Position numbers and translations under genes: made by a program
Assembly: GCA_963847445.1 (NCBI GenBank)
Contig: CAWJZV010000017.1
Location: 152,397-216,396 of the forward strand
Length of the DNA: 64,000 nt
Direction of reading: 5' to 3'
DNA from: an uncultured delta proteobacterium
GTDB taxonomy: Bacteria > Desulfobacterota > Binatia > UBA9968
Part shown: in pieces, positions 24,413 to 62,299 of the stretch
Numbering within the stretch: the stretch's first letter is position 1
Layout: the number at the start of each line of letters is the position of its first letter
The notes under the pieces: model-generated
What the model saw: the letters and a program-made list of their open reading frames with translations, nothing else
Told to the model about the DNA's origin: nothing
Databases searched by the model: none

Positions 24413-25514
24413 TCATAGCGCGTAGAGCGCCCGCGAGTTATCGCTCAAGATTTTCTCCTTGACCGTCGGCGTCAGGTCGCTGCGCTGGCGAAAGATTCTG
24501 ATCGCATCGACATCGCTGGAGATATCGGTGTGGCCGTAGTCGGTGCCGATGACCAGATTATCCTCGCCGGCTTCGCGCACGATGTAGGGAATGTCATCGG
24601 AGTTTTCGCAGGTGACAAACATGCCGTACTCTTTGAGCAAGTTGTCGGGCAACGCTGCGGCCCATGGTTTTGAAACGGTTCTTGGCTTCATGCATCACCC
24701 AGGGCACCCACTGGGCGCTGGCTTCGATGAAGCCGAAGCGCAGCTTGGGAAACTGCTCGTGGATCTCGCTCAGCAGGATATCGTTGAACGACGCCACCGT
24801 CGGCACGCGGAAGCGGTGCAGCGTTGCCGCGATGCGGGTCGGGTGATTGTACAGGTCGTTCAGCCATGGGCTGCCGTTGGCGATGTGAATAGCGATCGCC
24901 ATGTCGAGCTTCTGCGCCTCTTCGTAGACCGGATAGAAATAAGGATCGGCGAGCAAGCGATTGCCTTCCACCGGGCGTAAGCAGACGGCGACGGCGCCGT
25001 TCTCTTTGGACCAGCGGATTTGGTCCAAAGCGTCGGGCATGCTGAGCAGCGGCGGCATGCAAGACCAGCGCAGCCGGCCGTCGCTTTGTTTCCAGATGTC
25101 GGCGAGCCAGCGGTTCCAACTCTTGCACAGCGCGACGTCGGCGGCCGGACGATCGGCGCAGGATTCGATGAAAATGGTGTTGTGCAACACCTGGACATCG
25201 ACACCGGTGGCGTCCATATATTCCAAGCGCAAATCGACGTTGCCGAGTTCGCGGGATGCTTGTTGGTCGGCGAATTTGCGGCCGACCTGCTGTTGGCGTT
25301 TGTCCAGTTCGTCGTCCGAGAACGCAGGGAAACGAAAACCGCGGACTTTACCGTCGATGACCCAGAACTGCTGGCGCACACCGGCCTCTTCGCGGGTCTC
25401 CAGCGGCACCGGTCGATACTGTTCTTCCGACTTGTCCATAAACTCCCACGTCCGTAAGCATTCGACGACGTGGGCATCGGCATCGATGACCAAATTCTTT
25501 TTTGCGCTATCCAT
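24413..25514 (-). CDS. Amidohydrolase_2 family (ACMSD/decarboxylase-like), one frameshift
   Basis: IDADAHV, IH, FIEASAQWVP, IGTDYGH, ILSDN. Confidence 0.85.
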
Positions 25515-25581: not shown

Positions 25582-26339
25582 TTACTCGCGGGCGATCTCC
25601 CAGGCGACCACCGATTCGGTCTTGCCTTTGAGTTCCAGCTCTCGGCGCGTCGCCTTGGGAAACTGCCGGGCGACCGGACCGAAGGTTTCTTGGCCCAGCA
25701 ATATTTCACCCGGCGCGGCGGCGCCTTGGAGCCGCGCGGCTACGTTGACAGTATCACCGAGGACCGTATAGTCGGTGAAGTCTTTGCCGCCGACGTTGCC
25801 GACAAACGCCGGGCCGGTGCTAATGCCGATGCCGATCTCGCAGTCGGTCGTTCTCCGGCAATGTGGCAACATCGCGCAGGATTTCCAACGCGGCGGTCAC
25901 GGCGCGTTGTGGATGATCGCGCCAATTCAGCGGCGCGCCGAAGAACGCCATGACTTCGTCGCCCACCAGCTTGTCGAGGGTGCCGTCGTGGCGAAAGATC
26001 GCCTGGGTGGCGATTTCGTAGAAGCGATTGAGCCGCGCCGCCACTGCCGCGGGCTCCATCTGTTCCACCAGCGAGGTGTAGCCACGGATGTCGACGAACA
26101 TGACCGAGATGTTTTTCGTCTCCCCGCCCGGAGGAGCAAGCTCGTATCAGAGGGTACAGAGATGGGGATTCTTGCGCGACGGGCGGATCTGCAGCAACTG
26201 ATAAGGCACGGCGAAGATGCCCAAGAAGGGCACCAGGCATTCCTTGCAGCGCTTGCTCGACGGCAAATGGCGATGCAGTAGACGCGCCATCTTGGTCGTG
26301 CCAACCGTGCGGCGAATCCAGATCAGTAGTTTGTCTCAT
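25582..26339 (-). CDS. Class III adenylate cyclase with N-terminal CxxC...CxxU motif (candidate selenoprotein; frameshift near 25840)
   Basis: One frame reads RCKEC...NPHLCTL-TGA(26147-26149)-YELAPPGGETKNISVMFVDIRGYT; catalytic DKLVGD, DYTVLGDTVNVAAR; alternative in-frame start ATG 26290. Confidence 0.8.
26120..26136 (-). promoter_or_regulatory. Putative bacterial SECIS hairpin of the cyclase
   Basis: CUCCUCC-GGGC-GGGGAG, starting 10 nt after the UGA. Confidence 0.55.
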
Positions 26340-26416
26340 GCGCGGGATTCTACGCTGAAAGCGATGAGGTTGCAGCAGACCTTGTGGCCGGCTTAAATAC
26401 CCGTGAAAATGCGTGT

Positions 26417-61012: not shown

Positions 61013-62299
61013 CTACTGCTTCTCGTTCGACTGCAGCGCGTCGAGGGCTTGTTGGACGAGCTTGCGGCGCAGATCTTTTTCATCCTTCAGCGGCAGCTTG
61101 GCGTCGCCAGTGACATGGACAATTCCAGTGCCTAAAACGACCCGGTTGGAGCCGACCATTTTGGCGATCGGCAGCGCGGAGGTGATTTGCACGACCGGGA
61201 TGCCGGCCTTTTCGAGTTCGGTGGTGATCGCAGCGCCGCTGCGAGTGCTGGTGCCTCAAGTTGACGTGAGGATCACCGCGTCGACGCCGTCGCGCTTGAT
61301 TTTTTCCACCATTTCCCGTCCCAGTCGGCGGGTGTTCGAGAGCGGATTGGATCGGCCGCAGGTGGAGAGAAACTCCTCGTGCAGTTTGCCGATGACGCCG
61401 CTCTTTTCCAGCTCGCGCAGGGCGTCGAGGGGCACCAAACGATCGGGATCGTCCTGGACGAAGCGGGTATCGTAGCCGCCGTGAGAGACTTCGTAGTCCT
61501 CGCTGCGTAAATCATCGCTGCCTTCGATGTTATAGGCGCCCCAACGGGTCGCCGCGGTGCCTTCGATCTTGTCGGGATTCCCCTTGGGCACCAGCCCGCC
61601 GTCGGTGATAACCATCAGCTTGGCTTTCGACATGTCTTTAATCCGCGCCGGCATCGGCACGGGCGCGAACGCGTTCGGCAGCATTTCGGAATCGAACTTT
61701 TCGCCGTTCATTTTGGCGATGAGCATATCGATCATGCGCGTGGCCGCGGTCTTGTCGCCGAGTTGGTCGCGCAGCAGGCCGCGGCTGATATAGCCTTCCT
61801 CGGCGCGGCAGCCCGATGGGTTGCTTGGCGACGAGTTTCTTGCCGAGCTTCGCCATGGTCGCGACGATATCGCGCATCTTGGCGATACTGATCCCCGAGT
61901 CGACGATATGAAGCTCCTCGCGGAAAAGATCGACACCGGGATTCTCCACATGCATCGCCGTGATCGCGGGAATCCCCAACTCGCGATTGTATGGCGCGTG
62001 CAGATTGCGCCGGCGGCCATGCCGTAACGGCCGGCGTCGAAGCAGGGACCGGCGGCGAAGAGATCCGCGCCGCTGGCGCGAATCTTCTCCAACACCGCCG
62101 CGGTGACCTGGTCTTGATGCTCGACGGCGTGATTGTCGCCGCAGACGATCGTCATGGTTACCGTCGCATCATCGCCCATGAGCTGTTCGAACAGCTTCGC
62201 CGGCCCCAATGCGCCGTCGCGAAATTCCAATGGCGCGCCGGCATGCTCTTCCGCGCCGATGCCGCCGAAAAATTGATTGACGTAGTAGACGATCTTCAT
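61013..62299 (-). CDS. grdB: Glycine/sarcosine/betaine reductase selenoprotein B family (Sec at TGA 61256-61258; internal compensating frameshifts)
   Basis: YVNQFFGG, CGDN, AGP.F.AGRYG, HGGYD, VILTST-TGA-GTSTRSG...ELEKAGIPVV...VGSNR continuing to TAG at 61013. Confidence 0.88.
61228..61244 (-). promoter_or_regulatory. Putative bacterial SECIS hairpin of the grdB-like gene
   Basis: UCGCAGC-GGC-GCUGCGA, starting 11 nt after the UGA. Confidence 0.7.

Follow-up and report, generated by a model that had tools for sequence, protein, structure and literature searches.

Does a TGA codon inside the reading frame of a bacterial nucleotidyl cyclase end the protein, or does it encode selenocysteine (Sec)? 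The question is raised by a 64,000-nucleotide (nt) stretch of contig CAWJZV010000017.1 from an uncultured delta proteobacterium (assembly GCA_963847445.1; Binatia, UBA9968), referred to here as the window. On its minus strand, a gene at 25582..26339 with PF00211 matches on both of its halves is predicted to encode a soluble class III nucleotidyl cyclase of about 250 amino acids containing one Sec codon, the in-frame TGA at 26147..26149. From sequence comparison we conclude that the gene very probably encodes a genuine selenoprotein in which this TGA is read as Sec, because the TGA column is conserved and alternates with cysteine (Cys), because a constrained hairpin follows it in each subfamily, and because selA, selB and a Sec-type selD are present.

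The reading frame and its TGA codon

The relevant minus-strand frame reads ...KRCKECLVPFLG...SRKNPHLCTL-TGA-YELAPPGGETKNISVMFVDIRGYT. From the ATG at 26290 it passes through R-C-K-E-C and then S-R-K-N-P-H-L-C-T-L to the TGA (26149..26147), after which it continues with Y-E-L-A-P-P-G-G-E and the first cyclase strand, V-M-F-V-D-I-R-G-Y-T, and it ends at a TAA stop codon (25582..25584, minus strand). Translation of the window placed a first knuckle, C-K-E-C, at 26237..26248 and, together with the homologue alignment, a second knuckle, C-T-L-U, at 26147..26158, both on the minus strand, with the TGA at the fourth position of a C-x2-C ... C-x2-U motif. An earlier note on this DNA had claimed that position within a second CxxC and had held that the TGA was not one of the indel breaks of the window. 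Both claims were confirmed, the former by an aligned column of U or C in homologues and the latter by translation and by independent contigs that retained the TGA.

The window copy is interrupted by two extra bases on the minus strand. The frame from the ATG at 26339 departs from the M-[RK]-K-L-L-I-W of the orthologues near codon 3 by a 1-base shift. Once one base near 26329 is discounted, the window start reads M-R-K-L-L-I-W, and the ATG at 26337..26339 (minus strand) is the probable true start, with orthologues beginning MKKLLIW, MRKLLIW or MRRILIW. The second extra base, at 25841, falls between ...ENDRL and EIGIGISTG..., where the orthologues are in frame, and breaks the PF00211 catalytic domain (25612..26119, minus strand) into residues 58-141 of the first frame and 9-87 of the second. 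Orthologues L018-L025 showed a single uninterrupted frame of 250-252 amino acids.

The indels were checked against contigs of three short-read metagenome runs from three studies (X1, X2 and X3) and of one RNA-library run. Each of the three DNA assemblies dropped one base at 25841 and one at 26329. Positions 26147-26149 were covered by the three DNA runs and the RNA-library run with zero listed differences from TGA, in a difference table that omits 17 less-supported differences. We ascribe the frameshifts to the assembly, and not the TGA, because independent short-read contigs omit the indels yet keep the TGA. The evidence that both frameshifts are errors of the window's assembly and that the TGA is genuine is good but not absolute.

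These contigs also bear on whether the TGA arose through an erroneous base substitution or through nonsense mutation of a gene in decay. Such an origin would suit a copy that carries two frameshifts, in an assembly that is error-prone elsewhere (selB in four pieces, selA with an internal TAG, the neighbouring amidohydrolase gene split). However, the three independent short-read assemblies lack the indels and have the TGA, TGA stands at the same column in 57 loci with complete genomes among them, and protein-level conservation persists on both flanks of the TGA. A pseudogene or assembly error is already refuted in practice, and we give it a vanishingly small probability.

TGA and cysteine alternate at one column

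The earlier note had proposed looking in related genomes for homologues with TGA at this position, for others with Cys and for a conserved hairpin beside the TGA; all three were found. In total, the column held TGA in 57 loci from three diverged subfamilies and TGT or TGC in 69 loci. A six-frame search of 60 related genomes gave 10 orthologous matches at 52-95% identity, all with an internal TGA, and 5 paralogous matches at ~35% identity with one TGA each. On translation, the TGA occupied the identical column in all 15 matches, two frameshifted copies included. Further Sec and Cys loci were taken from scans of public genome and metagenome contigs.

The subfamily designated G1 (C-T-x-U-Y-E-[LFY]-A-P-P-G-G) comprised 35 TGA loci from Binatia, Syntrophobacteraceae-labelled metagenome-assembled genomes (MAGs), Dehalococcoidia/SAR202 and metagenomes. 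A paralogue in Binatia, G2 (C-N-R-U-E-L-H-W-E), comprised 5 TGA loci with C-L-A-D as the first knuckle, and the SAR202 type, G3 (C-N-x-U-[DE]-x2-L-P-x-G-G-A-E), comprised 17, including one, L082, in the complete genome of the cultured SAR202 isolate Ca. Lucifugimonas marina JH545, where the gene reads C-N-Y-U-D and falls inside NZ_CP046146.1:1059604-1063260. The Cys forms were mostly of a C-x2-C-C-[DE] type and came from Mycobacterium/Mycolicibacterium, other Actinomycetota, Mesorhizobium and other Alphaproteobacteria; three Cys-form loci were of the G1 type.

A maximum-likelihood tree was built with the Sec/Cys column masked. It held 98 rows (40 Sec and 58 Cys) after the exclusion of 11 rows with stops, frameshifts or contig ends and of 14 rows by 95% de-duplication. 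The Sec/Cys state switched at least 5 times on this tree, with at least 3 switches forced by well-supported branches, and Cys form L131 (TGT) clustered with Sec form L132 with a support of 99. Sec was retained in 19/19 rows of the main Binatia clade and in 12/12 rows of the SAR202-type clade.

Three further observations concern individual copies. The Sec cyclases of two Syntrophobacteraceae-labelled public MAGs (L052 and L053) were nested in the Binatia clade of the tree, a placement that may reflect outdated taxonomy labels or gene transfer. One public Dehalococcoidia MAG contig (L055), a Sec form, carried an extra internal TAA or TAG at codon 124, after ...D-K-M-V-G-D, explained either by a sequencing error, the MAG being a long-read one, or by decay of the copy. 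The source genome also encodes two Cys paralogues, at C46:221460-222119 and C30:241813-242484, with the module C-x-V-C-G ... S-P-R-N-P-N-x-C-T-x-C; the nearest relatives of both are the G2 Sec paralogues found in related genomes.

A read-through orthologue returned 1178 database homologues. Among the best 120, 109 covered 74% of the query or less, 2 covered 81-84% and 9 covered at least 90%. All 11 longer homologues, of which 9 are almost full-length, carry Cys at the TGA column, and 3 aligned short homologues start beyond it. To judge from this coverage, gene callers split the gene at the TGA; because they do so (109/120 of the best entries cover <=74% of the query), the family is misannotated across soil, sediment and marine metagenomes. 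In 300 other genomes of the phylum, a Cys-form profile at E <= 1e-45 gave catalytic-domain matches only, starting from query position 66 or later and none with a TGA. Within the phylum, the gene was seen only in the window's own family.

A constrained hairpin follows the TGA

In the window, the SECIS-like (selenocysteine insertion sequence-like) hairpin CUCCUC-CGGGC-GGGGAG (26136..26120, minus strand) begins 10 nt past the TGA. Its 6-bp stem, CUCCUC/GGGGAG, closes the apical loop CGGGC (26126-26130), and the 17-nt hairpin with a G-rich loop that had been noticed from the letters alone was found in the sequence as claimed. With the T of the TGA counted as column 1, the G1 stem CUCC[U/C]C / GGGGAG occupied columns 14-19 and 25-30 and the loop C-G-G-G-[C/U/A] columns 20-24. 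Across 27 distinct G1 sequences, 98.8% of 162 stem cells were paired, while slid controls gave 52-82%. Changes in this stem were a double change from U-A to G-U in 2 sequences and a single-sided change from U-G to C-G in 8.

The other two subfamilies have hairpins of their own. The G2 hairpin, GGGAG[A/G]CG-GGC-CG[U/C]CUCUC, lies at columns 14-21 and 25-32, and its pair 19-27 is A-U, G-C or G-U. The G3 hairpin, C-C-C-[A/G]-C-C / G-G-[U/C]-G-(C)-G-G, has the loop GG[U/C] and changes from A-U to G-C in 2/14 sequences and from C-G to G-C in 1/14. The changes at pair 19-27 of G2 and from A-U to G-C in G3 are compensatory. In all three subfamilies the hairpin stands 10-12 nt after the UGA, with differing sequences and with G in the apical loop. 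By the reported minimal fdhF SECIS and the bSECISearch model, the apical loop should contain G and lie roughly 16-37 nt downstream of the UGA, and the G1, G2 and G3 hairpins all fit this. The loop CGGGC was also found at the same columns, 20-24, in the Sec-type selD of the source genome.

Codon choice at the hairpin was close to fixed. In the distinct Sec genes of G1, Pro at +6 was CCG in 28/28, Gly at +8 was GGG in 28/28 and Ala at +4 was GCT in 25/26; the other 34 conserved 4- or 6-fold degenerate G1 codons all varied, with an entropy of 0.68-2.07 bits. At other Gly positions of the G1 gene, only a minority of sequences, 1-8 of 28, use GGG. In the Cys forms L131 and L133 the peptide A-P-P-G-G-E is unchanged but written with CCT/CCC and GGT/GGC, which abolishes the loop G and one stem pair. 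The hairpin constrains codon choice, synonymous sites being frozen there, and in these alignments codon choice is stronger evidence than pairing.

The same pattern helps to decide whether the TGA could be a real stop that yields two products: a Cys-rich peptide of 63 residues and a cyclase with a start of its own. This is just how gene callers divide the gene, and the window has an ATG 16 codons past the TGA. That Met is not conserved, however, being V, L or M in the orthologues, and the 15 codons between the TGA and the Met are conserved in frame. Moreover, the Cys forms are continuous single proteins, and the frozen synonymous sites are patterned as a SECIS, not as a start site. Two separate products are extremely unlikely.

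Selenocysteine machinery and tRNA-Sec

In the source genome, selA, selB and selD lie side by side (C14:191492-195726). The selA match scored 569.8 bits and contained an internal TAG. selB was present in frame-shifted pieces of 178.8, 91.2, 22.5 and 58.3 bits, the sum of which is above the cut-off of 242. Directly behind selA and selB, selD (C14:194887-195726) scored 360.3 bits and carries its own TGA (A-G-U-A-A-K). Of the Sec machinery that had been put forward earlier as a check on the claim, selA, selB and selD were therefore present, and an intact tRNA-Sec was missing from this assembly.

What the assembly does contain of the relatives' tRNA-Sec is the 5' 23 nt with the upstream flank (C4:239414-239486) and the 3' 24 nt with the downstream flank (C12:77529-77602) only. 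The tRNA portions themselves are at C4:239464-239486 and C12:77579-77602. Both pieces lie inside contigs, and the middle 44 nt, including the anticodon, are missing. This split suggests that the assembly is wrong here or that selC has been rearranged or has taken up an insertion; the source MAG is 91.8% complete and 6.9% contaminated. The best RF01852 matches in the source genome were tRNA-Ser genes. A tRNA-SeC predicted by ARAGORN on C2:139122-139203 was rejected for its poor acceptor stem and its lack of an Rfam match even at E <= 1. Among 18 same-genus genomes, 10 had a canonical tRNA-Sec of 74-77 bits, and seven of the carriers (G003, G004, G005, G007, G008, G018 and G012) also had the Sec cyclase.

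Outside Binatia, the Sec-form genomes JH545 and UBA1141 had selA and selB above the cut-off, and in a third Sec-form genome (a 1.6-Mb MAG) selA and selB were not above it. In the Cys-form genomes of Mycolicibacterium moriokaense and Mesorhizobium xinjiangense, neither selA nor selB was above the cut-off.

The unrecovered tRNA-Sec leaves room for a different decoding of the UGA, as Cys by a tRNA-Sec-like tRNA-Cys or as Trp by near-cognate reading. A tRNA-Cys of this kind has been reported for some bacteria, and the presence of Cys at the column in homologues would agree with it. However, the selA match is strong and selD is itself of the Sec type, the close relatives that carry the gene have the canonical tRNA-Sec, and TGA elsewhere terminates genes in these genomes, the matches showing a single TGA. 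Decoding as a residue other than Sec is very unlikely.

The cyclase domain

PF00211 matched the two window halves with 36.6 and 44.1 bits and orthologue L019 with 87.8 bits, at a cut-off of 21.9. In profile searches, the catalytic domain matched CyaB (3r5g) with E 2.6e-39 and CyaC (1wc0) with E 8e-38. An AlphaFold2 model of L019, made from a 41-row alignment, reached a predicted local distance difference test score (pLDDT) of 90 and a predicted template modelling score (pTM) of 0.86, with residues ~20-70, which form the N-terminal module, at 87-89. The best Foldseek match of this model was CyaC (1wc1; E 3e-19, target TM 0.85). By fold and profile, the neighbours of the catalytic domain were CyaC of S. 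platensis, Cya2 and CyaB of P. aeruginosa. In the NCBIfam scan the cyclase domain matched TOMM kinase/cyclase and LipJ, both weakly, and no model was specific to this family. On these grounds the gene product is a predicted small soluble class III (CyaC/CyaB-like) nucleotidyl cyclase that would synthesize cyclic AMP (cAMP) or cyclic GMP.

In the 41 sequences (L019 numbering), D83, D127, T191 and N198 were invariant and R202 was present in at least 90%. K123 was present in the window and in G1, was Arg in G2 and was not conserved family-wide. We take the roles of the metal Asp pair, the substrate Lys and the transition-state Asn and Arg to be those of CyaC. The earlier note had described these residues and an adenine-specifying Asp as intact. 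Of these, Lys, the two metal Asp, Asn and Arg are indeed intact. Seven residues before the catalytic Asn, however, the profile alignment to CyaC and CyaB puts an invariant Thr and not the Asp, as in the Lys-Thr pair of class IIIb. The Thr suggests a Lys-Thr (class IIIb) rather than a Lys-Asp pair.

The N-terminal module and its possible function

The ~55-residue N-terminal module has the pattern R-C-x2-C ... S-R-K-N-P-x2-C-x2-[C/U], with Sec at the fourth ligand position. C31, P37, G40, P58, C61 and column 64 (U/C) were invariant in 41 sequences, and C34 was nearly invariant, with Asp in the G2 paralogues. The module belongs to no Pfam or NCBIfam family and had no Pfam match at E <= 10.

A module profile made from Cys forms only retrieved 817 representative proteins (E <= 1e-3) among 1.84 billion. 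Eight of ten long module proteins had the PF00211 domain directly after the module. Two module proteins had a MerC-type membrane domain in front (34.3 and 35.7 bits, cut-off 27.6), and one had a cyclic-nucleotide-binding domain and a Crp helix-turn-helix behind the cyclase. Of ten short module open reading frames (ORFs) examined, eight ended exactly two residues after the third Cys, as expected of a gene caller that halts at a Sec codon.

Some of the retrieved proteins are worth separate mention. The short ORFs P0217, P0219, P0226, P0229, P0237 and P0263 end at this same point and show motifs outside G1-G3 (C-A-W, C-N-T, C-D-F, C-H-L and C-A-R). Judging by such motifs, further Sec-bearing subfamilies probably exist, including a Sec version of the C-A-R-C-I-E-R type otherwise seen only with Cys. 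In P0223, P0231, P0190 and P0150, the module-cyclase unit stands behind a MerC-type domain (in one case with C-A-V-C in the first helix), behind other membrane regions, or fused to a cyclic-nucleotide-binding domain and a Crp-type DNA-binding domain. The Crp-type fusion would be a one-protein cAMP circuit.

We propose the following mechanism. SelB with Sec-tRNA would bind the hairpin on the translating mRNA and insert Sec, in the standard bacterial manner. The four residues of the module would then form a metal-thiolate/selenolate site for Zn or a soft metal, in which Sec would be the most reactive ligand. Oxidation of this site, or its metal occupancy, would shift the packing of the module against the catalytic domain, the first strand of which lies ~10 residues past the Sec, and the change in packing would gate cAMP synthesis. 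The full-length enzyme would need Sec insertion, so its production would also depend on the selenium supply.

In favour of a switch, three of the module's Cys are invariant, the module has a weak and non-significant likeness to Cys4 zinc sites, two family members have the MerC-type domain in front of it, and many newer prokaryotic selenoproteins are tied to heavy-metal handling in the relevant part of a 2026 review (PMC13188914). We put the chance of a metal and/or redox switch, as opposed to a site with a structural role alone, at about even. A more specific version is offered tentatively and is on balance doubtful: that oxidants or soft metals (Hg, for example) are sensed at the Cys3Sec site, which directly gates the cyclase, that the cAMP output also reports selenium, and that the module is a new widespread sensor domain.

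Two other roles for the module would also leave the protein a selenoprotein. The module could serve structure alone, as a Cys3Sec zinc site, or could mediate dimerisation or anchoring, in either case without sensing anything and with Sec and Cys exchanged by near-neutral drift. The five or more Sec/Cys flips on the tree, which occur even within the tight L131/L132 clade, fit such drift. The module also resembles structural Cys4 knuckles, though non-significantly: a PDB profile search gave the Cys4 zinc sites of eL34 and archaemetzincin at E 0.24-0.36. Sec was nevertheless kept in all 19 and all 12 rows of the two large clades despite the cost of a SECIS inside the gene, and, to our knowledge, Sec is rarely used at purely structural sites, which counts against a structural role. 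We consider a purely structural role rather unlikely, if a serious contender.

Alternatively, the C-x2-U could work as a metal-free selenenylsulfide/thiol pair, oxidised by peroxide or disulfide and returned to the reduced state by thioredoxin, much as CxxU oxidoreductases are. In PMC2398784 and PMC1976440, CxxU is given as the redox motif found most often in bacterial selenoproteins, and the C-L-A-D first knuckle of G2 means that four thiol ligands are not obligatory. However, the module models lack the elements of a thioredoxin-like fold, having isolated short bridges and one or two short helices, and the Pfam scan of the module was likewise empty. Both first-knuckle Cys are otherwise conserved, with the spacing of a zinc knuckle. 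A metal-free pair is unlikely.

Weighing the selenocysteine reading

Several results count against a Sec-decoded TGA in a cyclase with a regulatory module. In G1, the main subfamily, true double-sided covariation was limited to one pair, in 2/27 sequences. The folding energy of the hairpin was not beyond that of dinucleotide shuffles (z = +1.23 for 71 nt and -0.56 for 23 nt), and short pieces gave z of -0.3 to -1.2, not significant for Sec or Cys forms. An Rfam scan of the hairpin region at E <= 10 gave two chance matches and no SECIS family. The stretch that forms the hairpin also encodes the peptide APPGGE, and since the Cys forms keep this peptide too, the hairpin's conservation is partly at the protein level. 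The source assembly yielded no intact tRNA-Sec, as described above. The window copy is frameshifted twice, and its explanation by assembly error rests on contigs of relatives and not on reads of this sample. For the module, fold and sequence searches gave no significant match (PDB profiles E 0.24-3.5; Foldseek best E 3.0), and a model of the isolated module was mediocre (pLDDT 71.7).

The hairpin exceeds chance by conservation and codon choice, not by folding energy. Taking both sides together, we consider a Sec-decoded TGA in a CyaC/CyaB-like cyclase to be the best explanation overall, and a highly likely one.

Relation to known systems and to the literature

The locus resembles genes of the fdhF, grdB and selD types in having an in-frame UGA where homologues have Cys, a small G-loop hairpin just downstream, and selA, selB and selD in the genome. 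It differs from them in the host protein, which here is a predicted signalling enzyme and not an oxidoreductase. Its catalytic domain is like those of CyaC (S. platensis, 1wc0/1wc1) and CyaB (P. aeruginosa, 3r5g), with the two metal Asp, Lys, Thr, Asn and Arg in aligned motifs. Unlike the cyclase here, CyaC and CyaB have neither a C-x2-C ... C-x2-[C/U] module nor Sec. The regulatory domains of CyaC and CyaB differ from this module.

In the anti-sigma factor RsrA, in Hsp33 and in DksA, oxidation of a Cys-rich zinc site alters the activity of a partner domain. These proteins serve as a working analogy for the module; they are not homologous to it and lack Sec, and for the module both zinc binding and a redox response are proposals. 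The closest precedent found is the FmdB family (TIGR02605) of putative regulatory zinc-ribbon selenoproteins, small proteins with Sec in a knuckle of the C-x2-C type, which is given as CxxU in PMC2398784 and as UxxU in PMC13188914. Unlike the module here, FmdB proteins stand alone and are not fused to an enzyme, and Pfam and NCBIfam scans of the module gave no sequence relation between the two.

Bacterial selenoproteins are mostly redox enzymes, with a few metal-handling proteins, in the relevant sections of PMC1976440, PMC2398784 and PMC13188914. A full-text literature search for selenoprotein or selenocysteine with cyclase or Binatia found no bacterial selenoprotein cyclase, in agreement with the earlier note, whose author knew of none. 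The word cyclase is absent from the main texts of PMC1976440, PMC2398784, PMC9312934, PMC12013277 and PMC13188914, the 2026 review, whose family table was covered as well; supplementary tables, such as Table S2 of PMC12013277, could list the family. Within the literature searched, this selenoprotein family has apparently not been described before, and it is the first one in signalling by nucleotide second messengers. What would be new is the occurrence of a selenoprotein family in a cyclase; recoding follows the standard mechanism, and the class of enzyme is a known one.

With Sec in an adenylate cyclase's regulatory module, selenium biology would reach into signal transduction, and one residue of an uncharacterised, widespread module would be flagged as chemically important. 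The claim is directly testable, since Ca. Lucifugimonas marina JH545, which is cultured and has a complete genome with selA and selB, carries the gene.

Other features of the window and the source genome

The neighbours of the cyclase gene, an NMT1-like binding protein gene upstream and a split Amidohydro_2 gene downstream, showed no functional link to it. Many 1-base indels are present in the assembly: besides those at 25841 and 26329 in the cyclase gene, they were seen at 26342 and 26390 just upstream. The Amidohydro_2 gene is split at 24413-25514 of the window, and the four frame pieces of selB and the internal TAG of selA lie within C14:191492-194790. Gene calls from this indel-rich genome will be fragmented.

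The source genome has about ten GRDB-family matches, some of them without TGA inside the Pfam region. One GrdB-family gene lies in the window itself (~61259-62299, minus strand), with an in-frame TGA at 61258 (T-S-T-U-G-T-S-T) that is followed by the hairpin GCAGC-GGC-GCUGC at columns 17-29. The cyclase hairpin had been likened to this one as being of the same size and nearly the same spacing. A rough likeness holds, and the equality in size and spacing does not, the grdB hairpin being 13 nt long and beginning 13 nt after its TGA.

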